Positions 2,802-38,932 of a DNA stretch of 40,807 nucleotides are shown here, one piece after another. The notes under the pieces are model-generated. The model saw nothing but the letters and a program-made list of their open reading frames with translations. It was not told the DNA's origin and made no database searches. Position 1 is the stretch's first letter. Each line of letters begins with the position of its first letter. This stretch comes from Nemertoderma westbladi (Eukaryota > Animalia > Xenacoelomorpha): positions 1 through 40,807 of the forward strand of contig JAUCBJ010006217.1 in the NCBI GenBank assembly GCA_032718475.1, written 5' to 3'. The position numbers and the translations under genes were made by a program.

Positions 2802-2981
2802 GATGTTGATAAATAGATCACACAATTTCACACCAGTAGGCCTACATGTTTTTGCAATATTTTGTAGTTGAGCTGAGTTGAATATCAAATTTTTTGGGCC
2901 ACCCTAACTGTCAACGCTCGTGACTATTTTGTACTACAGGTATTTTAACAGACTGTCACTTTTGAAATTTAAACTTTTAAA

Positions 2982-5429: not shown

Positions 5430-5691
5430 ATTTTTGTGATTGATGACATTGACAGGATAATTAGCCCATGGCCTTTAAATATAAGAAAACTAAATCAAAA
5501 TAACTTTGTTTCATTGAGGCACCGTTTTTGATTTGTAAAAGGTACCAGTACTATGTTAATGTATGTACACTTAACATCACTTTGCTTTCAAACTGTGTAT
5601 AGCCTATATAGTTGCATTATTGGTACCGGTAATTGATAAATGTTTCAATTGGATTAGATCTCTGTTTGTTATATGATATAATAAGATACAT

Positions 5692-7254: not shown

Positions 7255-8713
7255 ACAATATATGGTATCTGAATGTTCCACGTTTTAGTTTTCGCTATTT
7301 TAGTTTCCACGTATAACCACTTTTATATATCACTTTTGCTTCCACAATTTCTCATGCTGTGATTTATCATGGCGCATTTTCTGCACCACAATTTTTTTAA
7401 ATTAAATTTAATTGCGCATTAATTATTTTTATCAATAGTTCACAATAATATCAATATTCTAGAACATCGAATTATGGTACATTGAAGTTAATGAAGTATC
7501 GTTTTACAAAAACTGTGGTACCGGTACAGAAAACATGACACAATTTATCATGGCACTAAATCACGCCATGAGAAATCACGCTCACCGGAAATTGTGGCAG
7601 CAATGTGGTCTATATATTTCATTGAATACTGAAATGGTTGTTACGCATAGTTAACTCAAATATATACTTCCACTGTGCTACATTAAAATTAAATTGTAAA
7701 ATGTGTATCATATTTGAATATGAAAATGTGTAAATTGAAATCTGTATATAAAATGTGCTATTATAACATAATACCGAAAATATTATCAATAATTATAGTA
7801 AATGTTTTTTTATGTTTTTCAAATATAATCTACCCTAGTTTTATATACATTTTTTATTGGGTATTATTACAATATTGGCAAATTACGTAGACATCTAGGT
7901 AGTTTGACTACACAGATTATTATGCAGATTAATAAGTCAGCTGGTGAGGTTACCTAAATAATTTTGCATAATAACTCGATAATCTAGGTATTTTACCAAG
8001 ATTACCTAGTTAGTTCAAATGACAAGATAATCTAGTCAATCTGCCATGGTATCTTTCAGCACAATATTGGATGGATTATCGTGTCAGTCTCTTAATTTTT
8101 TTTGGCAGTTTGCAAAGATAGTTTTTTGAGTGTGCTGCATTTTTAAATTTTGGATGAAAATTACAAGTGTTGCCATAACTCGAGAACGAAACTACTCAAA
8201 TCAAAAACTAATTTCAGATCCGGAATTACCATAAAATTTAACAACGGAATACTCTTTAAAAAAAATAAAAAAAGATTGGGCGTAACCCGAGTAGCTAAAT
8301 GAGTACGGTACTGGAGTTTCCTCTGGGGAGTATATATAGTTCTGTGGGGACCGCACGGGAAATAAGTCGTCAGACTATCGCGTAATCCCTGGCGTAGCGG
8401 CCGAAGAAAACTTTACTTTTATTTAAGAATACAAGTGATACAACTCAAGCACTGAGCTCGACCTCGTGCGCTACTAAGTAAGGTTAACAAAACACTACCG
8501 ATACTAAAAAAAACACTACTGGTACTTCTCTTTAAACTACACTATTTAGTCATACCAACGCCGTCCAGGAGTGATTCAATTAATACCGTTGAACATGATA
8601 GAACATACGTACGAAGTCACCCAGCCATTTACGAAATCTCAGGTAGACATAGACCAGCCGCCCACATTCCGTACATTTCTATTTCCACTAAATAAAATAT
8701 AAAATAATCGTAC

Positions 8714-10432
8714 CTTTAGGGTCAGTGACGTCACGAAGTCTTATGTTATCCAGATCGTAGGGAGTGCGAGAAAGAGAGACCATCCAGGACTCTGGGGTCT
8801 CCAGTGTCATCGTCAACAACGACTTCTCTGGGAGGCCAACAAACCGAGCAGACGGACCAGCTGAGGCAGCACCGTCGTCACGGAAACGTAACTCTGACTC
8901 CAACACGTAGCGGTAGAAGGTCTTTAACGGAATCTCCGACCATTTCTCGGCGGGGTTGAGAACGAGAATGATGTCGATGTTAATCACGTCATGGAGAGCC
9001 TCGAGGATGGGAACAACCCTCTGGGCGTCCCGGGACAGCGGGTCCAATACCAGGACCACATCGTGAGCCGGAGATGCGGCATCGCGTCGGGGGATAGGGA
9101 TCGCGGCGGGGATCAACTCCCGGGGGAAGCGGACGGACTCCCGGAGGTCGGCGCGTTGGTGACGGGATAGCAACGCGCACGCCGCCATAACGGCGTCGCT
9201 GCGGGCGGCAGGGTCCGCTAACGAGGGTAGACCCGCGAGGGACTCAGACACCGCGCCGCCGCACGAACCCAGCGAGAGCTTCTCCAATAGCATAAAATCC
9301 TGAGTGAGGAATGGCCGCAACAGGGGACCCAACTTCCAACCGTTAACCACAACAGCCGACTCGCCTGGGTTCAACCTCATAACAGTGGAAGAAAAGTCCA
9401 TATGCAGCTGGAATGCAGCGGATAATTCCAAACTCGACAACATTTCGACAACAGAATCTTTACTTATTGCACTGGGTAGGATGTCAAACAGCTGTTTACT
9501 CTGTGAATGAATCTCCAGTAGATTATCTTCGTTCATAAGTTTCTGTATAGCGATTCTCGACGCGCTCTGTCCCGCAACTCCACCAGTTTTTACTCTCAGC
9601 AAACTCTCGCAGACGGCAGCTACACTGGTAATCCCCCGAGGGACCACACCAGCTCCGGGGTTGTGGATTACAGCAAGCCGCGCCATCCGCGACGACTTTA
9701 TATGGGCGAGCGCGGCGGCTAGCACAGCGCGGCCCTCCGCCGCGTCCAGGTCTGCGACCACCCACAAGGTGACGGGTCGCACTGCGTCCGCTCCCTTGGC
9801 GAGGTACCGCAGACTCGACCGCAGTGCGGCATGCTGCTGCCCCTCCCCCAGGTACTCCCGTGTCCCGCGCAGGATAACCTCGTTGAGTCGGGGCACCACA
9901 TTGTTCTGCTCCATCAGGTGATCCAACAGGTTGGTTGAGTCAGTGACGTCGCCAGCCACCACCCACTGCTGCCACGAGTTGGTAGAGGTAAACACACTGC
10001 CTACTATTGACTGTTCTAGAAGGTCAGAATTCCCCAATGTTTCTGGCTCCACTGGAACTCCATTGAATAGAACTTGAGGAGTGGATTCCAATCCCGAAGT
10101 AGCAATGAATTCCGCAGCTGACTCCAACTCGGGCCATTGTGAACCGTCTATGTCTCCAAGATCGTCGCTGTATTGAGTAGCAAACGTAGTTTCCAAAAAT
10201 GTAGCATCGGAGTGGACAGATTTAAGAATGCGATGAAGTTTATGTAAAGCTGGCAATCCGCCCTTTTCGCGATACTCTTTCATTACGATTCGGGGAATAC
10301 CGATAGATGGATCTAGGGTTGCTTGTACGCTAGCTCCGCTGTTACTGTCGCTTGTTGCTAGAACTATTCCTAATCGTATTGGAATGTTGTTGTTGGCTAA
10401 AGACATCATAAAGTCCACTAATTCGTAAGCCC
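8714..10432 (-). CDS. UGGT: UDP-glucose:glycoprotein glucosyltransferase, coding exon 3
   Basis: IPIRLG, PQVLFNG, VRPVTLWVVADLD, DPLSRDAQR, KTFYRYVLESEL, PESWMV..YDLDNI match UGGT. Acceptor AG at 10434-10433 and donor GT at 8713-8712 (both phase 1). Confidence 0.92.
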
Positions 10433-11189
10433 CTGAATAAAATTAGATTACGATTATTTTATGGCCATCAATTTTATTGTTAAAAGAAAGGAACACAAAA
10501 CAAAATAGAAATACAAAAAAATTATAAATTCATACAGACAAGGGGGGGGGGGGGGGGGGGGTTGTCGTTTCAGAACTCCGTAAACGTTGTAGCAAGTTTG
10601 TATGGATTAGTGTGTTCAAATGGATTACAATTGCAAATAATGGGATCCCGCAGAATAAAAACAACAAAGATGCATATCATAATTATTGTGTCGGAATCTC
10701 GCAGTTAGAATGGTGAACGGATATTGACAATGATTTCATCCTTAAATTGAAGCTAATTGAGTATCAGTTTCATCTCGGGGGAGGGGGATGGCAATAAGTC
10801 GTTATAATGTGCTTAATTTAATAACTGACATAACGGCCCAAGAAAACTCACTGTTTTGGCTTTTACTTAACAATTTATATCCATGTAAAGGATCCAATAA
10901 TTCACTATCAATTGACCTCATTATCATTTCGTTCACATATTGTATGATTATATTCACATCACACCAATATTTCTGTGAAATAAAGTGACATGAAGTCGAA
11001 CTAAAACAGCTACAACTGTAGGCTGTTTATGGCGGCCGTTTAATCGAGTTTAAATAAAGTTCTTGAATCTTGAAAAAAAATAACATCCAACTCTTGAATT
11101 ATTGTAACAATGATGAACCTATTACTTAGGAAAATGAACGGAGGGGCAAGCCCCTTGAAATGCATTGGTTATAGGTTCAGCCCCACCCG

Positions 11190-11250
11190 GCTCCATTCAG
11201 CCTTTCATCCCATGGGGTGGACAAATTGAGGACCAGTTTAATTACTGGGT
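11190..11250 (+). mobile_element. Deu/Nin-domain SINE fragment in UGGT intron 2
   Basis: TCAGCCTTTCATCCCATGGGGTGGACAAATTGAGGACCAG resembles the conserved DeuSINE/Nin central motif (from memory: TCAGCCTTTCATCC..GGGGTCGATAAAATGAGTACC). Confidence 0.55.
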
Positions 11251-11419
11251 GCAAAACAAGGGATAGGGGTAATGCGAATCGGGTAGGAACCTACAACCTA
11301 CCGAGAGAGGAGCCTTCGGGTAGCCTCCGGTTTCGGCCGATTGTTTGCTTGGACAATGTTATAAAATAAAATTAAAAAATTAAGGCAAATTGAAAATACT
11401 AAACTAAGCGATAGAATAC

Positions 11420-11999
11420 CTTTATCGTTAGTCGGGTTAACAAGTAGAACGAGGTGGTGGAGATTCTTGCGAATGTGTCGTAGCACTCCGGGGAAGGTTG
11501 GTCGCAGGAGATCCCGCACCGAGGAAGGCCAATCCCGGTACAGGCGATCCGTCTCGAGATCATTGATCCACAGGATCCCCGGGTGTCGGATATCCAGTGC
11601 GTATTCGAATCCCTGCGAGACCACCGGGACCCGTAGCAGAGTCTGCAGCAATGCTGACTGGTCTACCGTGAGTCCCAGCAGGTTGGTTAGTCCGTGGATT
11701 AATTTAGTCTCGTCGTTGAGTAGAGACAACAATACGAACGGATCCAGTGTGTCTATGTTAATGGCCAACCCGTTAATGAACAGAGCCGAGGATGAGTGAG
11801 GTTGGAGAAGGTTCTCGTAACTTTTAAACGTCGTTTTTATCTTTTCGACGAAGGAGTTTTCAAGGCGAATATCAGCTAGAGAGTGAGAGAGGCGGGGGAA
11901 GTTGCCGCTGATGTTTTTGAGTGTGGCCAAGGCTATGGAGGCATCAACGCCAACTACAAACTGAGAAGCTTGATAGCTCAGACTCTGTATTTGCCACAC
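11420..11999 (-). CDS. UGGT: UGGT coding exon 2
   Basis: VWQIQSLSYQASQ, LFING, WINDLETDRLYRDWPSSVRDLLRPTFPGVLRHIRKNL. Acceptor at 12001-12000 (phase 0) and donor GTATTC at 11419 (phase 1). Joins in frame to both neighbours. Confidence 0.92.
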
Positions 12000-13181
12000 C
12001 TAGTGTTAAATATATAAGAAGAAATACAATGATTATATTTGTTTACCCAAACTACTAGTAGTACAAGTCAAGGACACAACACACATAGTTCAAACAGTAG
12101 AATTAATATAAATAGTAGAAATTCGCGAAATGCAAAAGTTAATAGGGCAATCTTTGAATCTCAGAGCCATTGTATATTTTGGGTATATTTGTTTATTATT
12201 TTGGTTAGGATTAGTTGGTCAAGCCTTAACCGTAATTAAAACTGTCATATAACCCTAACCCTAAGTCATAATCTAAGAAATTTAGTGGAATTTATTGCCA
12301 TAAGGCCGTTAGCCAATGAGGAGAGCTTATTAAAGGAACAGCCAATTAGAAGCCCAGAAATACTCCCATAGGCACCCCAATTGGAAATATGCGCACTGGT
12401 TTCAGTTTCATTTCTACGCCTAAGTCATTGATTGATGACGTTTATTTATTGATTAAATTACTTTTGATTAAACTCCAGAATTGTAATACTGTACTGTAAT
12501 TACAATTACTTGTAGGCCTACTGAAATAAAGCAACAAGTTCCTTTTAAAGTAATTTCATCTCAAGGAGGTCTGGCCTACTCTGCTACCCGTTTCATAAAT
12601 TTCTGTTTCAGATCGTAAGGTTTTTTTCCAATTTGTAAATATTTTTAACTTGATAAATTTTTAAGACAAATTACAAATATAGGCCTATTAACTATTAAGT
12701 AATGTATTACACCACGTCAACATATCAGCGCTCAGTGATTTATATTCATCACGTTGCGAAATACCGCAATATCCATGTAACTGGACTATTTACGCATAGG
12801 CGGATATTCTTAGATTTGCCATTGGCTATCATTGCCAGTACAATTGGATTGGCGTATTAAACTAAACTAGGCCTAAAGAAATATCTTACCGGTATCTTAT
12901 CTTATCTTAATAAATATCTTATTCTATTAACATCCATAGATTGTATAAATTATTTATCCTGCTTAAATTACTTAATAATAAATCAATATATATTTAATAC
13001 TACTTTAACTATAATTACGCGTTCTGCCCATAGTAGTTTTATTTGTAAATTTACTTTGAATGCGCAATGCGCATACGGACATAAACTCTTTTTATTAATA
13101 TACGTGGCAAGACCCTCTTCCCAGCTGTTCCCTCCAGCCCCCTGGAGGCTCAGCATGAAATATCTTATGATATATATTTAC

Positions 13182-14105
13182 CTTTAGGGGTTTCATTTCA
13201 TCCGAAGTATCTTTGAGATGCTGTCGGAAAGTTGTTAACTCCACTTTCAATTTGGGGTGCAGATCTGTTAGCTTTCCGAATAGGAAGCCCTGGATATCAG
13301 CCACATTATCGACATCATCTCCGTTATCACTACCGGCTGTTTCATCTATCACTTTATATTCCGTTGATTTTAGAGCCAATTCTACGCCGAAACCACTCAA
13401 CCTTACGGGAACCGCACGCACATCGAGATCACTCACGTAATGACGCACCAGGTAAACTATTCGGCCTTCTTCAGCCAAATTAATTAAATACGTGTAAAGT
13501 TGGTTGAAAGCTTTGGTCGCCAATTCGCCATAGTGTATGACCAGAGGTAAAGAATTGCGTGAAAAGTTATTATTAATCGGATAAGTATGATCAAAAGAAA
13601 ACACCGTGGATTTAAGTTGAGTAAAGGTTGACTTAGAAGGTTCTTTTAATTTCCGCAGTTCTAATTCGACTTCGTTCACAGAACACAGAGTTTCATTATT
13701 TATAATAACGAAGGAATTGCACGGGGGAATAGTGGGAATATTCTCGACCAACTGGTAATGAAGTTGAACAGCAGGAGAATAAGCCCTTAACGATAAGGCG
13801 AATCGGAGTAAAGGTATTTGCAAGTCTTTGAGGGCCCCAGATATTAATGATAATTCAAGTACTTTGTTATAATAATCTAGGTCGGTATAGTCCGCATCAA
13901 ACTCAAAAGAAGAAACGCTCCGCAAAAAACGCCAAAAGCCACTTTCGTCATTTACTCTGGCAATAAACTCGCTGGTTTCAAGAAGTAATGGAGTATTACC
14001 CCAGTTGGATTCGAGAATTGTATTTACAGGTTTCGCTTGAGAACCGTAAACATGTTCTTGTGACACTATAGACATAAGGATGAAACTCCGCAAAAATAAG
14101 TACAT
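13182..14105 (-). CDS. UGGT: UGGT coding exon 1 (signal peptide and N-terminal domain)
   Basis: Hydrophobic N-terminus MYLFLRSFILMSIVS, then W..TPLLLETSEF, LSLRAYSPAVQ, VRLSGFGVELALKSTEYK, IQGFLFGKL. Donor GTAAAT at 13181. An alternative ATG lies at 14150. Confidence 0.9.
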
Positions 14106-16043
14106 TGCTCGAGATGTTGAGGTGCTGAAGGTGAACGGCGATAATGCCATGATGAACCAAACCAACAACTGAAGAAACCCTAATCTTCAGTTGATAAACC
14201 GGCCACTCTTCCCGTACCGCCGTACGACCAGCCTTATACTGTTATATCGGTAGACGGTAGCAGAGAGGCCGAGCCGAGGCCTATCTCTGTATCTAGAACA
14301 GTAATAGCAGAATAGAAATTAATAGGCCTAATACTGTAATAGATCACCACCACCACCACCAGGTGTAGGCCTAAATAGGCCTACACTACAGAAATATTTT
14401 TATAACTATTTACATAGGCCTAGGGTACTTGTGTGTAAAGTAGCACTTTACATGGTGATGATCAGATCTGAGTGATTTGTTACACGAACGAACGTTAGTG
14501 AGTGAGTGAGTGAAAATAAAGCCACGAGGATTAGAACACTATAAAGTACTTTGTAACAAGTATGTATGTAGTTTTATTCCAAAATTGTAACATTCTGACA
14601 TTACGAAATGATTGTATATATATTATAATACAGTAATAAGTGATAGAAACTGCACAAATTAAATTAGTTGCTGTGTAAATAAATGTAAAAATAACATAAA
14701 TGTAACGCTGTAAGCATATCTGGCTGTCAGGCAATTAATCATCAATGCCACCTATTGTTTACGTGGTAAGTGGTAACCAATGACGCCGTAACTTTACAGC
14801 TCGCCGTCATTCAGTCATTGGCAATTGGTTACCACACAGCCACATACTGACTGAGACTGACTGACATAACAGCATACTAACGGCTGAACGGCGTTGAGTA
14901 CAGGAGTACAGGAGTAGTTACAATTTTGGAATAATAATTATTTCGGTATTTATTGACAAAATGACCAAAAAAACAAAATAACTGCTGACAAAATGACCAA
15001 AAAAACAAAATAACTGCTGAACTGTAAAATAACACCATAGATCTCAATTGTCCAACAACACTCAGTCAGACACGATATCGAAAGCATGTAACTGTGTAAC
15101 ATAGGCATAAATTAATTAATTACCGGACCGGGGAATATCAAACACAAACAACAATAACCTACAGGTTGGCAGTTGGGCGTGGGCGCGGCAGTTAGACTCA
15201 TCTGCTAATGGCTGAATCTGTGAATGGCAAATGGAAAGAAGACAATTGAGATAGTATTCTGTGATCTGTATCGTATGCCATGCACTGATGCAGTATAAAC
15301 GTAAATTGCACTTTATTGCTTGTTTTGTTCAGTTGTTAGGCCTCCGTACCGTACAGCCGTACTGTAGTACTGCTGGTTCTTTTTCAGATGTGCAATTGTG
15401 CAACAGTATTACTGCTGTACTGTAATACCAGACCAGTCAGCCAATTCTCTTACAGTCTGGCAGTACAGCAGACCTGCAGTATAAAGGTATAAAGCAATAT
15501 GAAGTGAAATAAGTAGGCCTAATACAATCTGACAATAGGTACTGCATACTGCCGTACTGGGAGACTATTATTGCGAGCGAAGAAGGTGTCTCCTTGAAAT
15601 ACACCACCCAACCGCACAACCGCTCAATAACAAATCAATGGGAAGCATCAGCACTGCGACGTTACGACTTGTGATTGGTTGAGTAATTTGTACTGTATTG
15701 TACTACCACTCTCCATAACATATATAATTAAATTGTATATTGATACTTGATAGACACTTAAATGTAAATAAACAGTAAAAGTAGCAGATATTAGTTGTGT
15801 TTGTGTATAGGAGGGAAAAGACCGCCAATGACATGCAGAAGCAATTAGACCTACTAATGTTGGTCCCAAAGTGAAAAATATTATAAAATATTATCATATT
15901 TAAAATAATTTCCAAAAATAAAAATGGCGGAAAGCACTGTTTTTAAAACAATAGAAAGTTTGACTTTTCTATAGGTAGTGTGTATTTGGCAAGACATAAT
16001 TAATAATATTTATATTATAAAATGACTAAAATCAACACTCTTA

Positions 16044-18297
16044 TAGATTTATTTATACATTATGTAAAAACAATAACAAATACACCAAACAATGTACCGG
16101 TATAAAGGTATTGTCCAACATAACATATAGGATTACCCCTAAAGCTTTGCAGCTTATTTCCAAGGGGGTCCTTTATGTTACTTGGTTACAAATACAATAT
16201 TACACTACGCTAACCTAAAACCAATATAAAACGTAATTACACTATGTACATGTACAACTTTACCGAGAGCGTGACAATGCCCGACTCAACGATAAAGATG
16301 TACAGTAATGTACAGAACAATTTATTATAAAACGTAATTACAGTATAAATAGTAAATAATTAATAAACTAATAACTTACTGTAGGACTATTGTACCTATT
16401 TTTACATTGCACACGGAGGTGAGATTTAACTGCAGATTTAAAAGAATGTTGATTATTTATGTTTTTAATTTCATTAGGCAGAGCGTTCCAATTTTTTATG
16501 CCGTTAAAAAAGAAAGTATCAGATTCAAAGGATTTACAATTCGGGAGGTAGAAGTTTGAAGCACTAGCTCTGGTACTGTAAGAGTGTGTATCGCGTACTC
16601 TGTTGAATTTTTGTTTTAGGTAATTGGGACATTTACCATTATACACTTTATGCACATGGTTAAGGCGTAGCTGCTTAACTCTACTATCTAAGTTAAGTAG
16701 TCCAGATTCAGAAAAGTCATCTGGAGTTAGGTGGTGCCTAGGTTTGTAGTCTTTAATAAATCGTACTACTTTATTCTGAGCTACTTGTAATTTACATTTA
16801 AGCTGTTTGGTTAAGCCTTCATACCAAGAAGAGCATGCATAGTCCATGTGACACTGTATTAAAGAAGAGCAAAGTAACTTGCGGGAGTCGGTGTTCAAAC
16901 TATTTTTATTTCTGTATAGAAACCTAAGCCTACTGTTAACTTTCGAGAAAATATTTTTCACTGTACTTTCTCCTGATAAGCAGTTATCCAATGTGGCGCC
17001 TAAATATTTAACTTCCTTTTTATTTTCAATCTTATGTCCATTACTAGTGACTTCAAACTTAGTTACCTTCTTTAACTTTCTTTTGGAACCAAACAAAATA
17101 CTTTCAGTTTTACCGTAGTGAATGGATAGCTTATTATCAACCAACCACTCATTACAGGATTCTAGAACTGCACTTAACTTTTGGGAAATATGGATAGGAT
17201 CTTTATGAGAGAAAATAAGAGCACTGTCGTCGGCATAAAAAATGAGTTTAAAATCGGGATCTATACTACTTATCATATCATTTACATAGCATACAAAAAG
17301 CAGAGAACCTAATATACTACCTTGCGGTACCCCACAGGTAATCTCTTGTACAGTAGACTGCGATTTGCTAATGACTACAGTTTGACCTCTGTCTGACAGG
17401 TAGGACTTGAACCAGTCTATAGAACCTACACCCATCAGGCCTAACTTACCAAGCAGAATTTCGTGATCTACAGTATCGAAAGCCTTTTGTAGGTCCAACA
17501 TTACCATACCAGTATATAAACCCTTTGCGTTATTACATCTAATTGTATCAGTTAAGTTAATAAGGCAGGTGTCTGTAGAATATGATTTACGAAAACCGGA
17601 CTGAAGTTCATAGATCAGATTTAGCCTACTAAGATGTGCCTCCAGCTGTAGAAAAACAGAACGTTCTAGAATTTTAGATACAATACTTAAGATACTAACA
17701 GGTCTGTAATTACAGGGTTCTACTTTACTATTCTTTTTATACAGAGGAACAACCTTAGCTAATTTCAGTTCGTCTGGTACTACATTATCTACGATAGAGT
17801 AATTAATAATAAAAGTAATAGGCACTTTAAGTACTTGAGCACCATCCTTAAGAAAACGGGCAGGTATTAGATCTAGACCGGTACTTTTTGAGGCTGATAG
17901 GCTAAGTAGATTTTTAAAAACGAAATCCTCAGAAACGGGTTTTAAAAATAACTTTTCTGAATTTTGTAACTTTTCTAAATAAAAATTATTTAGAGTTTCG
18001 GACCCTATACTATATTTATTACTTGATAACGGTAACTTCTTAACTAAATTAGAGGCAACATTAGTAAAATAATTATTAAATAAATTACTAACTAGAGTAT
18101 GATCATGAATCAGCTCACCGTTATCTTGCAGAACAATATTCGATTTAGATTTAAGGTTTTTATAACCTAAAGATTTTAGGGTAGACCATAGACTTTTTGG
18201 ATTATCTTTATTCTCACTTATTTTGTTGTACAAATATTCAGATTTAGCTTTTTTTATTTCCCGTTGGACAAGGTTTCTACAATGCGTAAATGCTTCT
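16044..18297 (-). mobile_element. 5'-truncated CR1/L2-group (Crack/Daphne-like) LINE; RT ORF at 16368-18233
   Basis: [43 protein letters not shown]. Hairpin in the 3' UTR and an AATAAAT-type tail near 16045. No endonuclease domain. Confidence 0.9.
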
Positions 18298-20822: not shown

Positions 20823-21204
20823 GTTTTAGTAAATGTTGCCGGGTAGTGCCTCTGGTTGTTTTAAGGGCTTCCGAAATAGTGACTCTAGTATTTTCAAGGC
20901 CCTTAAAAATAGTCCTTAAAATTACTAGAATCACTATTTCATGTCGCCATATCAGCAATATGGCCTTTTGAAATCAGCTGATGGCGTTGCTAGGTACCCA
21001 GTTTAAAACCAATCAGGAAATAGTGATTCTAGTAATTTTAACGGTTCAGTCCGGGACCTGACAATACGGGGAGACCAAGATACGACGTTACTAAGTCTCA
21101 ACTTGAATACCTCAAAGAGGCGGGATTTAACTGGACTCAGATTGCTGCGATATTTGGAGTGAGTCGATCAACTATTATGGATTATGTGATTATGAGTATT
21201 ATGT

Positions 21205-22723
21205 GTTCCCCCTGAGGTCTTTAAAATACCTGAGTGTTTAAAGCTCATCTATCCCATCATAGTAGACATGTACCGAACAACAGGAGTCCCACAAGAAATG
21301 AAAACAAATAAGTTGGTGCCAGTTCCCAAGAAGGGCAACCTAACACTCTATGGTTCTTTTCGGGGAATCTCATTGATCTCGATTGCTGCAAAGCTATACA
21401 ATAGGATTCTATTAAATCGCATCAGGGATCCCATTGAGAGACTGCTCCGTGGAAATCAGAATGGGTTCCGTAAAGGTCGTGGGACCATGGAGCCCATTTT
21501 GGCACTTAGAAGGATAATTGAAGAGTTATCAAAAAAGAAAGACAGGCATCTGGCTGTTATCTTTGTTGACTTCTTCAAGGCCTTTGATTCAGTCTCTCGC
21601 TCACGTATGTTCAGCATACTTTCATTATATGGGATTCCTGATGAAATTATTGCAGCAATCAGATCAGTATACGATGGTTCGACAACATTTGTGTCTACTG
21701 TTGAAGGTGACACAGAACCATTTGAAGTGTTATGGGGCGTCCTCCAAGGAGACACACTTGCACCATTCTTGTTCATTATTTTGGTTGACTATGTTCTACG
21801 CATGTCCTTAGATCATTATAATGATGATGGGGTGATGATAACTCCACCTACTGGCTCCAGAAGTCGAGGAAATCCTGCCAAGTACCTAACTGATCTAGAC
21901 TTTGCTGCTGACTTAGGAGTACTCTCAGAATCATTAGAGGGAGCCCAACGGCTCCTCAGCTCATTAGAACATGCTGCTTCTAGTGTTGGTCTTTTTATTA
22001 GCTCCAGAAAGACCAAAATTCTGACAGTTAACTTTGAAAGTCCTCAGCAAGTCTCTGATCGGATGAGCATAAGCTCAAAGGATGGTATGCTTGATCATGT
22101 GGACGACTTCTGTTACCTGGGATCATGGATCCGGAAGTCAGGTGAGGTCCTTCGAATACGTAAGGGAAAGGCATGGGCAGCCTTGAATAGGCTTTCCAGG
22201 ATTTGGAAGTCACCGAGAATTAATCGGAAACTTAAGGTCCGATTATTTAGAGCAGCAGTAGTTCCAGTACTCCTCTACGGGAGTCCATGCTGGGCTCTAA
22301 CTGCTGAGGACACCAAATCTCTGGATGGCACATTCACAAGAATGCTACGCCGGGTACATTGTGTCAAGTACAATGCACACATCTCCAACCAGACACTATA
22401 TAACATTGGAGGTGTCTCATTGGTTCCCCCAAGCTTGACACTAGAACAAAATCGCCTCCGCTTTGCAGGACATTGCTTTCGCCGTGAGGACCAGCCAGTG
22501 CATAATCTTGTACTTTGGCAGCCTCATGGAGTGAATAAGCATGGTGGACAGCCCATGACTTTCTTGAGACGCATCTTAAAGGACACTGGCCTTAAAGATG
22601 CGGATGATCTAGCAAATGTCATGGGTGATAGGGAGTTGTGGCGGTGCAATTTTGTTGACAAGCCGGCACAGCATTCTTAAAAATGCAGCTGCAATGCAGC
22701 ATGCCGATCCTAGTAGTAGTAGT
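21205..22723 (+). mobile_element. 5'-truncated RTE-clade LINE; RT ORF at 21268-22680
   Basis: FRGISLIS, QNGFRKGR, FVDFFKAFDSV, GVLQGDTLAPFLF, FCYLGS, RLRFAGHC. (TAG)n tail at 22711-22723. The catalytic FADD reads FAAD. Confidence 0.9.
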
Positions 22724-23348
22724 CTTCAATTAGGTTTGGGAGTTCGAAACGGTTTGGGAATTCGAGTTTGGGAGTTTTTCATTGTGAAATAACTAAAACT
22801 GAAGTGAAATAGCAAAATAGGTAATATAGGTATTATATATGATATTATGTTATGTGTTATGATATTATATATTTTCTAGAATATTAAATGTTGATGGAAT
22901 TTTAAAATTTCAATGTTGATGGAAACCGAAAGTTCATGATTGTTTACAATTGAATTTTTTCGCTAATTCGACTGTACTCGACTGTACGGTGGGATTGATG
23001 GATTTTCCTGTCTGATTACATACCTTTATCCATCGGGTAACAACTGTGCTGCAACTGTTTTGCCATTATTGGAGGAAGATGTTAGGAAATACGGCCTCCC
23101 TTCAAGGGTGAGAGGAGATAAGGGAGGGGAAAATAGACTGGTCGCCGAATATATGATAAGTCATCGAGGCACAAAACGAGGAAGCTTTATTGCAGGTAAA
23201 AGTACTCACAATCAAAGGATAGAACGCTTATGGAGAGATGTATTCCGTACTGTTGTTATTGTTTATTATGAGCTGTTTTTTTGGCTAGAAGACAACTCCC
23301 ATTTAGAAACCCCCTCTGTCGATGATATATATTGTTTGTATATTACTT

Positions 23349-24735
<1,387 letters not shown>

Positions 24736-27980: not shown

Positions 27981-29149
27981 ATGTATCCTTAGACACTATA
28001 GTATCCAATGTTCCAATCGTTTTAGCTTACTGATGCAGCCCTGTAAAGCCTAAAACCATAACCCAATGTTCTACTGCCTAAAAGAATATCACATGTTAGT
28101 CTTAGTCTGCTCTTCTAATACTGATGGTATAATAACCCTTACATGAATTCACCCAATTTTTCCATTCCGTACAGCGTTTGGAACACTTTCTACCTGCCAA
28201 CTGAGTATAAAAACCCTTACACTAGTTCGACCCCTTTCCCCATTCCTTACATGATTTCAACGTCCAATCAAATAATAGTTCATTAACCAATCCTAGGCTA
28301 CAATTCAATATATGTTCCTACTAGTGTAAGGATTGGGAATACGCAACCCGGTACCTAGGTTTCAAACTTCTGGTTATCATCAGCCGGGTGTGTGTGTCCT
28401 AAGGCAACTGAGCTACCAGGATGGATGAATAATTTTATTCGCTATTGAGTGGGATAACATAATTTGGCCTTTAACTAATATATATATATTTAACTAATAC
28501 TTTTAATTGATTATTGATGATTATCAATGAAAATTGATTATGGAAGTTTAACCTGTGCTATTGACTCCCGTTTATTGTTTTGGTTAGAAATGCATGCCAC
28601 TATAACCTGTTTCTTTCCAATAATTGGTAATTATTGGGCGAAGATTGGAAAAGCATAAAGTACAATAGGAACACACGGGCCTAAAACGTAAGGAGCCTTC
28701 ATCTTGATAGTAAATTAAAAAAGTAAATTTAATAAATTAATATGTCAATTTCAATTAACTTAAATTATTAAGAAGGGGGGATGATTGGTTGTGGATATCC
28801 ATTCAATCCCAATGTTGCAACAATGAAAATGGTGAAGTTGGTGTGATATTATTTATACAGGTGACATATTTTATTACTGCCCACAGCGCAATATACACAT
28901 TGTACAATGTGATGCATGTATAAGGATGCTAAGTTTACTATAACACCTCAAATTTCACAGAACAAAACTCAACAACATAAAATGTTATCTACTAATAACT
29001 AAAGTACACTAATAATATAGGCCTACTTGGTTATCGATTAAACAATTCAAAAGTTTGAATTCTAAAATTAAAATAATTAAATTCTAGAATTAAAAATGAT
29101 ATCGAAAATTGCAATAACGAAATGCTAATTAATTATTAATTGTCTGATT

Positions 29150-30538
29150 TTTTAACAAAGCCAAAGCGAAATAGGATTCCACTAAAAGCCGCTTCACTTC
29201 TTGTTCTGAATCGATATTAATAGGGATGGTGAGTTCCATTGTACACCATAGTCGGCGGGGATGAGCCACATAGCCAGTTAAGAATATTAGATTTGGTCAA
29301 TGTGTGTTATTGTCAAACTAATGACCCACAGTCATCTAAACATTGAAATGAGGCGCCAAACCAAAATGAAATATCATCTTCCCTTTCGTAACCGTTTGAG
29401 CCTGGTTGGAGAGGATCCAAGAATTCAGCTTCACGCCAAATTTTGGAAACCATTATTTCCGGGGAACAAGAAAGGACTTTATAGATAAGGTGACTTGGAA
29501 AATCTTTTATGGACAGAATTGGCAGAATTCCTTCTTTCAGAGAATCTATAGCGCCTTTATTGAATATTAGTAACGACTTCAGAAACAACTCTGCAAACTT
29601 ACGCAGACTTAAATCACTGCGAGTAATATTCGCTTCAATCATAATCAATCCCATTTCGGAGGACTTGTATCGCAATTCGTCTGTGATGTTTCCTTGTAAC
29701 AAATTGGTAATTACTTCCGGCACTTCGTGAATCAATTCTAGAAATTCTAGACAACCAACATCCTGGCCATTATATGTAATATATCCCCCAACTAAAGGGT
29801 GAATTATGCCAATAACAAGCTCGCCATGTATAATTGCAATATCCAACACTTTTCCTAATGCCCTAAATTGACCATTGGCCACCTTAGATATATCAGCTAC
29901 GGAGGGTATTATTAATCCATCAATATTCGAAAACAGAGCGGAATTAATTAAAGCATTAATAAATGTTCCAAACATATCACGACGTAGGCTGCCTTGATCG
30001 CAACCGGACTCTCGTGAAAATGTTACCGCAATACCCTCTCCAGGGTTAAGATTATGCACCTTTTCTATTACATCATCCATTAGTTTTCTCCTTCAGATTA
30101 ATATCTTTTGCAGAAGATCGACATCTATGTATCCTGGCATTGTGTCGTCGTACTCATAGTAATGCTGCAAATTCTTCAAAACAGCCAAGTCTTCCTTTCT
30201 TAATTTCCAATTGCGTGCATCATCAATAATACCGGTACCTTCCATATTGCCGGATGGAGCTATATTCAATATTCATCCTCTATAAGCTCTGCTGGGCGCC
30301 TTGGCCTGTTAATGTTTTGACTGTTTGGAAATTGTAACTGTCCAGGTCCACTACCATTAGGGTTAACTAACGACCAATTGTGATTACTCGTAGACGTCGT
30401 CGTTGTTGTAAGATCAACTACAGGATGTTGAGGCACTGACAACTGTTGTAAACGGTGTCCACATCTTGTGCAATAAATATTATCATCGCCATAAAGTAAA
30501 TTACAGCAGCGGCGCTGTTCTTGGTCCATCCCATACAC
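29150..30538 (-). pseudogene. Degenerate HECT-domain E3 ubiquitin ligase-like gene with N-terminal zinc ribbon
   Basis: 30538-30266: CC..YCTRCG. 30080-29313: VTFSRESGCDQGSLRRDMF..LF..FRALGK..IIHG (HECT N-lobe pattern V.F.GE.G.D.GG.RREFF). ~29290-29150: ILNWLCGS..CTMELTIP (C-lobe catalytic Cys pattern). Disrupted by stops and frameshifts. Confidence 0.7.
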
Positions 30539-31419
30539 AACGAATTATGATAAGCTCTAAGCTACACAAAATGTTATGTATAGTCTACACTGTGCAGTAT
30601 ATCAGTACCAGATTACATGGCCTAATGTCAGGAATTCCCGTATTTAGTTCCAAAATAGGATAACAAATTTGTTTCTATTATAACTAAGTTCGCTTCTGAA
30701 AATGTGCGAATGCAACTAAGTTCGTGTAACAACTGGTTAGTAATATTACCGGTTTACTGTTTTGCTTCTTAGATACAACTTAATTGTATTAACATTGTAT
30801 TTAATAATGTTTTGTACATTACACTTAACTAAACTCTACTTTCCTGTATCTTGACTCCGCTATCTCTGTACTTATCTTTATTGATAAAGTATGATAGTAA
30901 TAATAATACAATATGAGTAATGTATTTTTCTCAATTAAAATTTTGGAAACTTAGAAACACTAACTACATTAAGTAAATAATAGTGACTAAGATACTAATG
31001 ACGTCAATACAACTTAGGCCTAGTAATCATTTATGGATTTATGTTATGCCCACTTTTACAGACCCAATCACCCACATCCACTAGTAAATCTTAAACTCTC
31101 GATAGTGCAGCAACTTTATGTACCGTCGTTATCATATGCTATTACAGAAACCATATGATTTCAACAGTAGTCCGATTCACGCTTTATACTTCTTTACAAT
31201 AGTGGAGAAAGGCCTTATCAATGATTGGCTAAAAGATGGGTGGCAATTATTCGAAGATGAGGCACAAATTCTTGATTGGTTAAAAGATGGGTGACAATTA
31301 TTAAAATTCTTAATCTTAATTAGTCTTATTAATTCTTAATTATTTTATTTAAATTATATTTAATTTAAATATTAATTCTTAGTCTTAATTTAGTGGTGCA
31401 GTTTTGTTAGGGTAGGGGT

Positions 31420-31491
31420 GGGGTTCGTGGCACACTGCTGATGAGGAGAACCACGAATCCCAGGGTTCAGTGTTTAAATCTCCGAAACCCT
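31420..31491 (+). ncRNA. Hammerhead ribozyme, non-circularly permuted topology (copy 1)
   Basis: ACACTG-CTGATGA-GGAGA ... AGGGT-T-CAGTGT ... TCTCC-GAAA-CCCT gives stem I ACACTG/CAGTGT, stem II GGAGA/TCTCC and stem III AGGGT/ACCCT. Predicted cut after GUU at 31467. Confidence 0.75.
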
Positions 31492-32092
31492 TTTATTTTT
31501 ATAAAATTTATTACTTAGACTTACATTTTCGGCGGACAAAATGTCCTATATTTTTCGTAATTTATGGGATAGCCTATTTCGTGCAATACTTACCGGAACC
31601 TGTAGTTACTGTATGGTTGGGTGTAACTTTTCTTGTGGTAGTTGGGTTGGGTTATGTAGCACTAAAATCGATTTGGTATTTTGTTTTTTGATGGGCATTA
31701 GTGCCTGAGTACTAACAGTGGCCCAAGTGGCCCTAAATGCTAGGTAGTATCTGAGGGAATAAGACCCCATGTGTCCTATTTTATTGTTTTCATATTAATA
31801 TCACAATCCCTCTAAAGTCGCGGTTGTCTAACATCATATAATTATATATTTACAGGGGCATTTTCTGACATCTGCGCAATTTTGTTAAAAAATCTGATAA
31901 TTTATCTGTACATACCGGTAGGTGCTAATTGGGGTTGGTTGCATTCAGTGGGGAATCATGTTTATGCATTTGGGGCTGATGGTAACATACATTGGGGGTG
32001 GGTGGTTTCAACTCTGTTCGGTGGTACGGTAGGATTTCTAATTTATTGGTCATTGTCTTAATTTAGTGGTGCAGTTTTGTTAGGGTAGAGGT

Positions 32093-32164
32093 GGGGTTCG
32101 TGGCACACTGCTGATGAGGAGAACCACGAATCCCAGGGTTCAGTGTTTAAATCTCCGAAACCCT
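32093..32164 (+). ncRNA. Hammerhead ribozyme, non-circularly permuted topology (copy 2)
   Basis: Identical to copy 1 over all 72 nt. Predicted cut after 32140. Confidence 0.75.
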
Positions 32165-32559
32165 TTTATTTTTATAAAATTTATTACTTAGACTTACCTT
32201 TTTCGGAGGACAAAATGTCCTATATCTGTATATTTTTCGTAATTTATGGGATAGCCTATTTCGTGCAATACTTACCGGAACCTGTAGTTACTGTATGGTT
32301 TGGTGTAATTTTTCTTGTGGTAGTTGGGTTGGGTTATGTAGCACTAAAATCGATTTGGTATTTTGTTTTTTTGATGGGCCTTAGTGCCTGAGTACTAACA
32401 GAACAGTGACCCAAGTGGCCCTAAATGCTAGGTAGTATCTGAGGGAATAAGACCCCATGCTGCCATGTCCTATTTTATTGTTTTCATATTAATATCACAA
32501 TCCCTCTAAAGTCGTGGTTGTCTATCATCATATAATCTATTAGCTCTCAACCTAAGATA

Positions 32560-33070: not shown

Positions 33071-34546
33071 CAGTGGCGTGGTGGGTCCCAGTAAGGGGCC
33101 CGGGAAAACCCAAAATAAGGGCCCATTTATAAATGCCAGATCTCCTCGAATTTTGACCACCCCCCCCCCCCCCCCCGCCCCCATGCACAAAATATTTTCT
33201 CGAAAAAGGCTTTATACTGTTTTAAAGAAACAAATAAAATTACACAATTATTAATAAAAATAATGTAAGTAGTGATAAGGGCAGTACCAGGGCCTTCATA
33301 AAATAACTGTATTGTATTACAACTGTTATTTTATGAAGGCCCTGGCAGTACACAATAGATTTATTTCAACTTTTTAATTTTTACCGCGAAGTTTCGATTA
33401 AGTTATACTGCAGTGTTATGCAAAGGCTTCAAAATGTAGAGCATCCTTCACAAATTTTTCAATTATTACAAATAGTTCAAATTCCCCGGTCCAACTCCTG
33501 TTTAATTTCATCAGGAGAAATGCCTCCAAATGATAGTGAGATTGCATAAAACTTAAAATAGAGGTATAATCACGCAACTCCGGGGTGGGTGAGTTAGAAT
33601 TTGTATTTTTGCTTTCAATTATTAGTTACAAGCGTTTAAAAAAAGGTCGATATTGCACCAGTTACACCATACACCGCAGTTATTCTTCAACCATATCTGC
33701 TTATAGTATAGTAACATTCGTTGTAAAGGGTAAAAATTTACCTTTGAACCGAGAAAACGTTTATAGGCAATAAGATAAAAAATAACCAAAAGGTAATACA
33801 ACATTGCTGAGCGGCTGTAGCCTACATGTATTTTACACATTATTGTGTGGTAATTTATAATAGTTTTTGAGTTATTCAAAAAAAATCAAGTCTCCCCTAA
33901 AGTCAAGTCTCCCTCACTCTCCATAATGAAGGAAAGCTGGAGACTACCTACCTCTATTTCATGGGAGATCATTGATATATTGAACTCTGGTGGATGGTCA
34001 GCTCAGGTGAAACGAATGCATTCCCAACTGTATAGTTATATGTACATACACAGCACACAGCATTATAGGGGAAGAGGGCGCCCCCCTCCCCTACTGTGGT
34101 CAATTAGGCTCCCTTTTCCAAGTAACAACTCAATATTGACAGACTACTGCTAAAGAAAGGAAGAAACTAATGTAACTAACAACACAGTTTGCCTTGCCGA
34201 CGCCGCCGGCCGCCTGACGGCCTGAGGGGACTTTTTCAATATAGAATAATAGGCCTACTGGGTATGTGCTCCTACGTTTACACACCCCCCCCCCCCCCCC
34301 CCCCCCCACCCCCCCTCCTCCTCTCCAACCCTCTTAGTTTAGTGCTGTGCTTGGTAACTGCTACATGGGCCTCTATAGCTATTGTTTTGGTTTCGTTGCT
34401 TATATTTTATTGGAAATATGTAATACCTACTACTATAATTGTTTATAAGATCAATATAATTTTCTGACCCTGAGGGGCCTGGGGGCCCAGATCGTCAAGG
34501 GGGCCCGGGAATTTTCCCGAATATATGTATGGCCACCACGCCACTG
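33071..34546. mobile_element. Non-autonomous hAT element, 1476 bp
   Basis: 14-bp TIRs CAGTGGCGTGGTGG / CCACCACGCCACTG. 8-bp TSD CCACTGAC (33063-33070; 34547-34554). GGGCCC subterminal motifs. Confidence 0.92.
33288..33344. mobile_element. 57-bp hairpin mini-MITE
   Basis: 20-bp perfect TIRs CAGGGCCTTCATAAAATAAC. 7-bp flanking direct repeat GCAGTAC (33281-33287; 33345-33351). Confidence 0.85.
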
Positions 34547-35977
34547 CCACTGACTGACTGAAGGTAAGAAACATGTATTTTAATCTTTTAATTTAACTAT
34601 ATTTTAAGTGCAATTGTTGCCCGTAAGTGTTCATGTAACCTGGGTGATGTTCTCCCTTTTAATTAATTTATGTGTATGACAGTATGACGTCCTCCAAACA
34701 CCAAATCTCTGGTAATCGTAAATCGTTCAGGCACTTTGCACTTAAACTGGCATTCTTCCTCACCTCCCCGCTCCCCCCCACCAGTCAGCCAGTAGTGCCG
34801 GCCGTGGCCGGTACAATTCTGCAATTGAACATCGTCATTCTGCTGTTCTGCCATTTAAAATATTATTTGACTATTACAGTATTACTGTATTAGTTGATTG
34901 CCTAGCAGCCTAGGCCTCCTTACGGTACAGTGCATTAGGCCGGTAGGTACCGGTAGTCGGGTAGTGGTAGTCAAGTAGTGCGGTTGTCTGGCAGTCTGGT
35001 ACCGTACTGGGGGTACTGCAGTACTGATGTACTGGTAAGCAGGCAGGGCTGCAGTACATCGGTAGGGTCTACTGACAGCTGGACAGTGGACTGGACTGGT
35101 AAAATTAAGTCAGGTATTTTTCTAGAAAATACAGTGTTTTCAGTGCGCGAAGGGCACATCGTCCTCTGCAGCCGTAAAATTGGCACCACATTAAACACAC
35201 GACCTGTGGCATGTGGTGTCTGTCTGTACAGCTGTAGATTTTTCCGGCAAATTGATGTAAAATTGAGGAAATGGTGCACATTTGAAAACAGGCAAAAATT
35301 GACTTTTCGAGAAAAAAGCCATAAACTCCTGATTTTTAATCGTTCTGCACGAAATGGAGAATCAACTACCGGTACCGGCTGACCGGTAATTAAATTTTTT
35401 TTTTCTATGAAATTAGGCATCACTGCATTCTGCATTATGACGATACCCCATCCCATCACTCTGTCACTGCATACTGCATTTTACATTACACCGAATGATA
35501 CCAAATCACAACAAGTCACACCAAATCACAAAAAAAAAATTGGAAAGTAAAGTCTTTCTGTTTTTGAGCAGGTTACAGTCTGACAGTGGTCTGGTGGTAG
35601 CCAGAAGGAACCAAAACAATAAACTATTTGGAAAGGGTGTCGTTTTACTTTATAATGCAGTACGGTAATACCATGAAATTCTGAAATTACCCATACTGAC
35701 ATAGGTCAACAGTCAAAGAGTGTCTGTGCTGCTGTGTGAAATTTGAGACAAATCGGTCCAAAAATGCCCACTGCTGCACTGGGGAAAGGTGTTTGTCATT
35801 GTCACTGTGCCTCCAATGTGATAGAACCAATAATAGGGCCTACCTGTAAACTGGTACGGGTACCGATAGCCTAGCGTTGCGGTAGTTTTGTTTTGATACC
35901 CTGATATATTGTTTAATATATATATTATATATACCGGTAGCCTCTACACTGATAAATGAGATCAAAAACTGATAACT

Positions 35978-36417
35978 ATGGATCGCGGAAGAGGGCGAAA
36001 GAAGGCGAAACTTATAAAAACCTCATCCGTCGCAGCCACTAGAAATAGATCGCAGCTTGCTGCAAAGTCTACTGGATCGAGTACCGGTACGGTGGAAATG
36101 TACGGCGAGCGCACTTCGGGATTTGTGCATAATAAAATGGAAGATGTCAATGATAAAGTAAGCAGTAGACCTGCATGCCTAGTTTGCGAAGACCACTATA
36201 ACACCACCACAAATTTGCCGATGCTGCTTAAGTGTGGGCATTCTTTTTGTGATACATGCCTGCAAAAGTTGTGCAAGTTGCAACGCGGTTCGTTAATGTG
36301 TCCCGGCCCTGGGTGTCATACCATAACTGAGGTTCGTAATCAAAGTGTCAAGTCCTTACCAATCGATGTTTACACCGTTGGGTTAACTACTCTCAATAGA
36401 ACCCAAGCTCATAAAAG
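35978..36417 (+). CDS. TRIM/RBCC protein exon 1 (RING finger)
   Basis: CLVC..PMLLKCGHSFCDTC..CPGPGC. Donor AG|GTAATT (phase 2). Confidence 0.85.
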
Positions 36418-36827
36418 GTAATTATATTACTAATTACGGGTACCGGTATTTAAATCTGCAGTGAGATTGAATATTTAATGAAAATAATACTTCGGTAGGG
36501 CCTACTTTTCTTTGCAAAAATTGATCGAGATTTAATATACTGGTATGGTGGTATCACCATTCATATTTTATATTCATATTTCATTGGTCTATATCACCAT
36601 TTATGGTTGTGTAATCTACTAAATTGCTAAATTTCAAAAAATATATGGGGTTTTTTTTTTTTAACAAAAAATGTTTTTGACAACATTGGGCTAAGTATAT
36701 AGCCTATTATTTTGTGGAATGAAGATTGAAATTAAAGTTAATTTTATCTGTTTTTTAGTAATATTTAGATATTGTAATAACAAATAAGCTAGGGCAGGGG
36801 AATAATATATTAAATTTTTTTTATCAG

Positions 36828-37019
36828 TGAATTGAATGTTTCGAAGAAACAGACTTCCTCCCAAATGAAAGCCCAAATGGCAGCGCGATTCGGTTTGCCG
36901 TTACCTAACATGATTGACCCAACACGCCCTCGCAGGAGCAGTCATGTTACTCCATTGTCTCCCACTGAGGCCGTTTGCGCAGAATGCGCAACCACGATAG
37001 CATCCAGTCACTGTGCTCG
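36828..37019 (+). CDS. TRIM/RBCC protein exon 2 (start of B-box 1)
   Basis: Acceptor TTTTATCAG at 36827, in frame with exon 1. Encodes CAECATTIASSHCA. Donor CG|GTAAGT. Confidence 0.85.
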
Positions 37020-37902
37020 GTAAGTAATACACAACCACGATAGCAGCATCCAGTCACTGTGCTCGGTAAGTAATACACAACCACCATAGCAGCATCCAGT
37101 CACTGTGCTCGGTAAGTAATACACAACCACGATAGCATCCAGTCACTGTGCTCGGTAAGTAATACACAACCACCATAGCAGCATCCAGTCACTGTGCTCG
37201 GTAAGTAATACACAACCACGATTGCAGCATCCAGTCACTGTGCTCGGTAAGTAATACACAACCACGATTGCAGCATCCAGTCACTGTGCTCGGTAAGTAA
37301 TACACAACCACGATAGCATCCAGTCACTGTGCTCGGTAAGTAATACACAACCACCATAGCAGCATCCAGTCACTGTGCTCGGTAAGTAATACACTACACA
37401 ACCACGATAGCAGCATCCAGTCACTGTGCTCGGTAAGTAATACACAACCACCATAGCAGCATCCAGTCACTGTGCTCGGTAAGTAATACACAACCACCAT
37501 AGCATCCAGTCACTGTGCTCGGTAAGTAATACACAACCACCATAGCAGCATCCAGTCACTGTGCTCGGTAAGTAATACACAACCACGATAGCAGCATCCA
37601 GTCACTGTGCTCGGTAAGTAATACACAACCACGATAGCATCCAGTCACTGTGCTCGGTAAGTAATACACAACCACCATAGCAGCATCCAGTCACTGTGCT
37701 CGGTAAGTAATACACAACCACCATAGCATCCAGTCACTGTGCTCGGTAAGTAATACACAACCACGATTGCAGCATCCAGTCACTGTGCTCGGTAAGTAAT
37801 ACACAACCACGATAGCAGCATCCAGTCACTGTGCTCGGTAAGTAATACACAACCACGATAGCATCCAGTCACTATGCTCGGTAAGTAATTCACAACCACG
37901 AT
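36989..37902 (+). repeat. 43/46-bp minisatellite, 20 copies, spanning an exon/intron junction
   Basis: Unit CAACCACGAT(AGC)AGCATCCAGTCACTGTGCTCGGTAAGTAATACA. 20 GTAAGT counted from 37020 to 37881. Confidence 0.97.
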
Positions 37903-37932
37903 TAATCATTTTGTTCCGATATTATATTTCAG

Positions 37933-38167
37933 GTGCAACGTGAACTACTGTGGACTGTGTTTCGAGAACATTCACAAAGGGTCGAGGATCCTGCGTCAGC
38001 ACCAAGCTACAGCCTTGTTTGAACATTCGAGTATCCGCCGCCATGTCTGTGAGACCCACACTGATCGCGAGCCTGAGCTTTACTGCACCCCATGTCAAAA
38101 GGCTGTTTGTTCATTCTGCTTACCTGATATACACAAGGGGCATGAAGTTGTCACATTAGAAGCCAAG
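37933..38167 (+). CDS. TRIM/RBCC protein exon 3 (B-box 1 end and B-box 2)
   Basis: Acceptor TATTTCAG at 37932. Encodes RCNVNYCGLCFENIH..RQH and CETH..LYCTPCQKAVCSFC..HKGH. Donor AAG|GTTAGT. Confidence 0.88.
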
Positions 38168-38932
38168 GTTAGTTAATTTTTAAATCCTGACAATCTGTCC
38201 TGCAACGAACCTGCTACCTTTACCTTTAACAATATGTCATGACATTCCATACCATCATATTATTTTGCAACAGCTGGGCTCTATGGCAACGGTATGACGT
38301 CATTACATCACTTCTGGAAAGTCGATACCCCGGAACCCCTCACCCAATTTTTTTTACAAATCGTAGTGTGATTCATGGAATTTGAAACAGCTGGTTAGAC
38401 TTCTGTTGGTTTTTATGTCAGCTTAGAGAGTTGACAGTTGAGTGTACATCAGATAAACTAATATCTGCGAATGAGTAACTCAACAATATTTATCTGTTGC
38501 TTTTGGTATCGGTACCTAAGTAATACCGTAACGCCTAGCCCCATTGCCATTATGTATGGTTCCAATTTATGGGGTGATACGTATTTCATTTAGCCCATGG
38601 ATTCCACCACTCCTTCCCGGGTAGTCTACTTCGGCCTTAAACGACAGTGAATTCAATTTAATTTTTTCCAAAAGTTTTCCATTTATAGGTCCTTACCTAA
38701 AAACCGTCCGGGTTTCGCGTCATTGGGTACTTTGGTGCAATATCATGGTGTTATTAATGGAAATGAGTATGTTACAGTGACATGTTATTCGAACCAAAAC
38801 AATAAGACGAGAGTCAATATTACATGTTACAGTTTAATTTTTGCTGAGAATAGATTTAGATTTATGGTAAGAAATAGGTTTGTTGGAAATATAAATAAAA
38901 CTACTGTATTATGCAGCACCAAACGCTAACGA

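Follow-up and report, generated by a model that had tools for sequence, protein, structure and literature searches.

Results and Discussion

A type-CSG hammerhead motif in two copies

Positions 31420-31491 (+) of the Nemertoderma westbladi contig JAUCBJ010006217.1 almost certainly fold as a true hammerhead ribozyme of type CSG, a wiring in which stems I, II and III all cross one another on direct reading, and an identical motif lies 673 bp away in the same stretch of DNA (40,807 nucleotides in all, referred to here as the window). On balance we favour an account in which this CSG ribozyme, present in two copies and predicted to cut itself, probably serves to process transcripts of a small retrozyme-like element that depends on Penelope. 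More tentatively, type-CSG hammerheads could be the working ribozymes of an undescribed eukaryotic class of tandem retroelements (retrozyme-like and Penelope-dependent), present here in hundreds of copies and again in an unrelated metagenomic array, L003. The elements of the motif, taken from direct reading of the sequence where nothing else is indicated, are as follows.

31420..31491 (+): type-CSG hammerhead motif, copy 1, 72 nt (direct reading, C-S-G descriptor, L003 alignment, covariance model)
32093..32164 (+): type-CSG hammerhead motif, copy 2, identical to copy 1; predicted cut between 32140/32141
31420..31461 (+): outer hairpin with block C in its loop (11-bp helix 31420-30/31451-61)
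31432-37 with 31468-73 (+): stem I, 6 Watson-Crick bp
31438-44 (+): CUGAUGA core
31445-49 with 31479-83 (+): stem II, 5 Watson-Crick bp
31462-66 with 31487-91 (+): stem III, 5 Watson-Crick bp (U16.1 = 31466)
31462..31473 (+): block S, formed by the stem III 5' strand, the GUU triplet and the stem I 3' strand
31467 (+): H17 = U31467; predicted cut 31467/31468, placed by analogy with other hammerheads
31474..31478 (+): S-to-G linker UUAAA, 5 nt (L003 and the two published CSG sequences have a linker of this length)
31479..31491 (+): block G, formed by the stem II 3' strand, GAAA (31484-87) and the stem III 3' strand
31409..31418 (+): purine-rich upstream strand in which the stem III 5' sequence recurs, giving block G an alternative partner (possible off-fold)

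Blocks C, S and G follow each other in 5'-3' order, each uninterrupted, and the core is complete, with CUGAnGA, GAAA, UH, G10.1-C11.1, A15.1-U16.1 and U as H17. The preliminary description had located the core nucleotides and the Watson-Crick stems correctly, base for base, and its reading of a non-circular permutation with three crossing stems, in the order [I-CUGANGA-II][III-UH-I][II-GAAA-III], is upheld; absent from it were the 11-bp outer helix and the identical second copy. This outer helix, worth about -22.8 kcal/mol as a duplex stack, joins the distal ends of stems I and II and closes a 20-nt loop containing the entire CUGAUGA block, while block S abuts it with zero spacer. The loop of the stem III hairpin holds the 3' strands of stems I and II with the 5-nt linker between them, and the loops of the two hairpins are complementary over 6 + 5 bp. 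The motif may accordingly be pictured as two kissing hairpins, in which the outer hairpin loop would pair with the stem III hairpin loop through stems I and II; this loop-loop pairing would build an ordinary hammerhead core, and the outer helix may replace the loop I-loop II contact.

A C-S-G descriptor found only two motifs in the window, 31420-31491 and its copy (match at 32111). Among 300 dinucleotide-preserving shuffles (24.5 Mb, both strands) there was a single match, a loose one with stems short of 6/5/5, and these 0 full motifs in 24.5 Mb rule out a chance origin. The motif does not belong to the canonical types I, II and III (Rfam clan CL00010), since its order is C-S-G and not the circular C-G-S with an unknotted three-way junction. 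It had been anticipated that standard hammerhead descriptors would miss it, and the Rfam search at the motif site indeed gave no match at E up to 10.

A further member of a very small class

Type CSG was defined in 2023 by Eckert, Friedrich, Weinberg and Weinberg (PMC10085705), who split the hammerhead into blocks C, G and S, and of the published permuted motifs with which a comparison had been proposed in the preliminary description it is this one that matches. The C-S-G wiring itself is already known, and the window ribozyme is a further member of a very small class. Its natural representatives, CSG-1 and CSG-2, are two unique sequences from soil DNA metagenomes, for which the parts of the paper covered give no associated element and no biological setting; both were assayed and cut at the predicted site, at 0.004 and 0.026 per min, and the authors grade the type as likely valid, although more weakly supported and with modest covariation (PMC10085705). 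The window motif, a predicted ribozyme, resembles CSG-1 and CSG-2 in its C-S-G order, full core, stems I-III, outer helix around block C and 5-nt linker of the form UUAA(A/U), and this four-helix layout and linker, common to two sequences that cleave, support the account given above. In all of these cases the outer helix is closed by a pyrimidine-purine wobble or mismatch (U-G in CSG-1/2, C-A in the window and L003, by eye). In contrast, the stem sequences are unrelated (published CSG sequences were compared by eye and left out of the pair counts given below), the outer helix has 11 bp in the window and 7-8 in CSG-1/2, there is no spacer between the outer helix and stem III where CSG-1/2 have 2 nt, and the source is a multi-copy, partial-tandem repeat of an animal nuclear genome instead of a soil metagenome.

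The type-SGC hammerheads described in the same paper (HRIMA-1 and variants, 583 predicted sequences, PMC10085705) have the same two modules, an S-linker-G strand and a block-C hairpin, but in the opposite order, and come from environmental sequence; HRIMA-1 adjoins hairpin ribozymes in metatranscriptomes, and many type-SGC sequences carry a bulged U after CUGAUGA. Since SGC, CSG and GCS are circular permutations of each other, a tandem or circular RNA can show either register. In the literature searched, which lay outside subscription journals and bioRxiv supplements, the 2023 paper was the sole match for a type-CSG hammerhead, and there was no report of one from an animal genome or from a tandem repeat resembling a retroelement; nor do the parts of PMC13725137 covered mention a CSG hammerhead in an animal or a retroelement.

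An independent family and covariation of the four helices

A scan of metagenome contigs with a general CSG pattern returned three loci, two of which (L001 and L002) were rejected as CSG motifs because their stem pairing fails. The third, L003 (1274-1530), is a tandem array of 114 bp x 2.3 with two full CSG motifs and a leading orphan S-G module, and has the ribozyme core alone in common with the window. Seven frames tested in L003 gave no Pfam match, and judging from its composition our guess is that its host is a eukaryote. The array, which can be folded as CSG or as SGC, begins ~10 nt before the first predicted cut, and its stem III differs between units with compensation. That this second family also sits in a tandem array supports the account proposed for the window repeat.

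Scans of prokaryote genomes gave 18 loci, and three scans of viral contigs gave 0, 1 and 113. None of these 132 prokaryote and viral loci was convincing (L017, a weak 4/3/3 match, was judged to be due to chance), so that L003 alone passes pairing among all 135 loci. A pattern for the exact window family gave 0 matches in metagenome contigs, and a covariance model built from three rows and run over the window and 99 of the 135 loci gave nothing new below E 0.009.

When the window motif was aligned with both L003 motifs (three rows, two independent families), all 68 of 68 cells paired and none was broken. Double-sided changes were present in 11 of 23 pairs (4 of the 7 aligned pairs of the outer helix, 2/6 in stem I, 3/5 in stem II and 2/5 in stem III), as against one at most in controls with slid partners, and none of the 11 changed pairs is among the core-adjacent ones, the only pairs fixed by the search pattern; with three rows from two families, this is a pair count and not a formal, R-scape-type covariation test. 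The covariation among homologues envisaged in the preliminary description is seen in this comparison with L003 and not among paralogues, where no compensatory change is listed for the contigs over the motif.

The S-to-G linker has a length of 5 nt throughout (window motif, both L003 units, CSG-1/2), consistent with joint action of S and G within a unit. This constancy bears on a different use of the same blocks, namely their assembly between two RNA copies or across tandem units, where the single-strand knot would not be the working form and C and G of one unit would meet S of the next, the blocks then being ordered as in a canonical type I hammerhead whose loop III is long. Tandem copies exist in the window, the direct succession of outer helix and stem III, with zero spacer, could put a monomer under strain, axolotl retrozyme hammerheads work better as dimers (PMC7229834), and the parts of PMC10085705 covered report no monomer-versus-dimer test; single-unit CSG constructs of 77-78 nt nevertheless cleave (PMC10085705), and with the constant linker we regard assembly from separate units as improbable.

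The repeat that carries the motifs

Both motifs are contained in a repeated block, composed of the following parts.

31382..31842 (+): first repeat copy, read as 5'-truncated and ending at the putative 3' end of the element (blastn; truncation deduced)
31843..32536 (+): second repeat copy, read as a full, non-coding unit of ~694 bp (no Pfam match, depth profile)
31468..32140 (+): putative 673-nt RNA between the two predicted cuts, 39% GC

In blastn, 31382-31842 and 32055-32536 are 93.8% identical, and the second repeat copy gave no Pfam match in frames of at least 62 aa. In DNA contigs from four runs of three studies, the block at ~31390-32540 is far deeper than its flanks. An exact 65-nt contig over the motif reaches a depth of 5800 (run X1) versus 14-82 for long diverged contigs, so that there are probably some hundreds of near-identical copies. 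Summed depth climbs from 31843 to 32536 and then collapses (Spearman 0.90, 0.77, 0.78 and 0.60), although these values sum contigs over two copies and are not copy numbers; as a hint, the rise and drop, which 5'-truncated copies of a + strand RNA would be expected to produce, suggest an element on the + strand with its 3' end near 32536, inserted at this locus first in 5'-truncated form and then as a complete 694-bp unit. Eight of the 15 joints listed (of 20) are strand switches inside the unit, and 5' loose ends lie at most 7 nt from a predicted cut in 3 of 9 distinct cases, among 19 of 57 rows. A joint from 31930 to 32463 appears in runs X1-X3 at depths of 703, 389 and 172 and implies a subfamily with an internal re-start. 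The insertion adjoins an AT-rich, low-complexity tract, and the search for a target-site duplication gave none above 6 nt (6-mers only).

Folding, triplet choice and predicted cleavage

The 72 nt of the motif alone already adopt a predicted minimum-energy fold with the outer helix and stem III. The upstream strand 31409-18 allows a nested off-fold of -32.0 (copy 1) or -30.0 (copy 2) kcal/mol that blocks block G, while the ribozyme scaffold has -22.2, to which pairing of stems I and II, taken as bare duplexes, would contribute some -20 more, less a penalty for the knot; the two folds may therefore compete. The triplet is GUU in the window, and GUC in all CSG sequences seen elsewhere (CSG-1/2 and L003). 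Hammerhead cleavage is slower with U at position 17. We expect with good confidence that the 31420-31491 sequence cleaves in vitro, and self-cleavage is predicted to take place after U31467 and, in the second copy, after U32140.

It could be argued that GUU and the upstream decoy now silence the motif, whose fold was once selected, leaving a relic of little or no activity, carried along as the repeat was amplified. The energetic reach of the decoy fold would agree with this, as would the lack of significance of the conservation between the two window copies, where none of the differences falls in the motif (0/16; P = 0.07). Across 32040-32200 (161 nt) no more than two minor variants attain 1%. 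The first lies immediately upstream of the motif; the second, a G12-to-A change in the core present in few contigs with ~2% of depth or less, would likewise agree with a relic. Against a relic, neither the two copies nor the dominant contigs of the three studies show any damage to the core or to the 22 pairs of the core stems and outer helix, while the repeat flanks outside the motif carry many frequent substitutions and indels. In addition, the major allele A at 32089 weakens the pairing of the decoy strand, U17 is present among predicted natural non-circular hammerheads (counted by eye, in 5 out of 33 rows of an SGC-variant alignment, PMC10085705) and GUU is listed as a cleavable hammerhead site (PMC3138052). 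No numeric rate for GUU cleavage was found in the literature searched. A silent relic is in our opinion quite unlikely.

Relation to retrozymes and Penelope-like elements

The window repeat shares with the non-LTR retrozymes of animals (Cervera and de la Pena, 2020, PMC7229834; Li et al., 2026, bioRxiv 10.64898/2026.07.22.740005) the organization in non-coding, low-GC tandem units with one hammerhead each: there are at least two tandem units with a complete hammerhead, their motifs 673 bp apart, and GC content is below 45% (39%, with no Pfam match over the unit). Dependence on Penelope is also proposed for both. Retrozymes, however, have type I hammerheads, units of 150-450 bp and stable, highly self-paired circles, whereas the window repeat has a type-CSG hammerhead, a unit of 673-694 bp and no unusual structure, its 673-nt unit being less stable as a circle than shuffled sequences (MFE -162.3 versus -170.2 +/- 5.7 in 30 shuffles, z +1.4). 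For these three reasons it was not filed as a retrozyme.

With Penelope-like elements, including Naiads (Craig et al., 2021, PMC8557442), the repeat may have in common partial tandems, 5' truncation, inverted copies and unclear target-site duplications. Within the window these traits come from one locus, a partial tandem of a 5'-truncated and a full copy with a shared 3' end, for which the joints and the depth gradient are weak hints. Unlike Penelope-like elements, the repeat has no linked reverse transcriptase/GIY-YIG frame within 24-40.8 kb of the window, where the 51 frames scanned (between 24 and 39.4 kb) gave no match to a Penelope reverse transcriptase or GIY-YIG.

The element as a whole could alternatively be larger than the unit described here. 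The same active CSG ribozyme might belong to a longer autonomous element, Naiad/Penelope-like or of another non-LTR type, with the repeat as its 3' end (pseudo-LTR or 3' UTR) and only truncated pieces of it in the window. The partial tandem with its shared 3' end, the depth peak at that end, the inverted joints, the adjoining AT-rich tract and the lack of a target-site duplication above 6 nt would all fit such an element. Hammerheads are typically found within pseudo-LTRs, and while canonical ones in Penelope-like elements are minimal type I, Naiads are reported to be devoid of these (PMC8557442); by eye, some passages of the Naiad consensus sequences contain S-linker-G strands with a UUAA or UUA linker (PMC8557442 supplement). 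These Naiad motifs are, however, wired differently from the window CSG motif, neither of two block-C words was found in that supplement, where line breaks could hide some, and Pfam gives nothing for 31843-32049, the 5' part of the unit. We consider a longer parent element rather unlikely, but the most serious of the alternatives discussed here.

The small retrozyme-like element that we favour would use the two ribozymes to process its own transcript. Cuts after U31467 and U32140 in a tandem transcript would release the 673-nt unit. Its ends, a 5'-OH and a 2',3'-cyclic phosphate, could be joined into a circle by an RtcB-type ligase of the host; ligation of this type has been shown in vitro for animal retrozyme RNA (PMC7229834). 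A Penelope-like reverse transcriptase acting in trans, as has been proposed for the copying of retrozymes (bioRxiv 10.64898/2026.07.22.740005), may then copy the unit back into the genome, giving rise to 5'-truncated, partial-tandem and inverted insertions such as those reported for Penelope-like elements (PMC8557442).

Together, the window and L003 add two unrelated families to the natural evidence for type CSG, and compensatory changes between them extend to each of the four helices. Tandem repeats carry both families, in one case within an animal genome, so the class can now be tested in a real host, in a setting that suggests a purpose. The long outer helix without a spacer to stem III also offers a useful case for how the knot is accommodated. 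If the proposed account is true, the rare C-S-G wiring gains a host and a job, that of serving a small jumping element. Under the more tentative reading of an undescribed retroelement class, CSG-1 and CSG-2, the orphan soil sequences of 2023, would have come from CSG-bearing tandem retroelements as fragments, and the knotted CSG/SGC family would represent a second, parallel ribozyme toolkit of animal retroelements, missed by all standard descriptors. Surveys of retrozymes and Penelope-like elements employ type I descriptors and hence pass over a set of ribozyme-bearing repeats.

Other features of the window

A type I hammerhead of the kind seen in Penelope-like elements is present at 28329-28401 (-), with a palindromic stem III, a weak stem II and a GUA triplet (Rfam HH9, 27.5 bits, E 0.0013, below gathering), and degenerate repeats spaced by 78 bp adjoin it at 28127-28251. 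Canonical and knotted forms are thus found 3 kb apart in this genome. Between them, 1.3 kb upstream of the repeat, 29313-30080 (-) holds an intact 255-aa frame with no Pfam match, and beyond the repeat a 24-bp near-perfect inverted repeat with an 11-nt loop (33287-33345) gave weak miRNA-model matches only.

Other mobile-element remains are two RVT_1 reverse-transcriptase remnants and an integrase-core frame (rva_4), at 16368-18296 (-), 21196-22680 (+) and 22967-23395 (+). Two long frames at 2973-7254 (+), of 818 and 525 aa and with a weak N-terminal zinc-finger match, presumably resemble a DNA transposon gene pair. A UDP-glucose:glycoprotein glucosyltransferase (UGGT) gene occupies 8688-14186 (-) in few, very large exons, one of them GC-rich (~59%); it is roughly as far from vertebrate proteins as from those of molluscs and arthropods, with 33-41% identity in its exon, and the first exon has at most 41% identity among the matches listed. 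Finally, RING and B-box exons of a TRIM-like gene at 35960-38173 (+) are split by a 46-bp minisatellite of ~20 copies (36999-37902).
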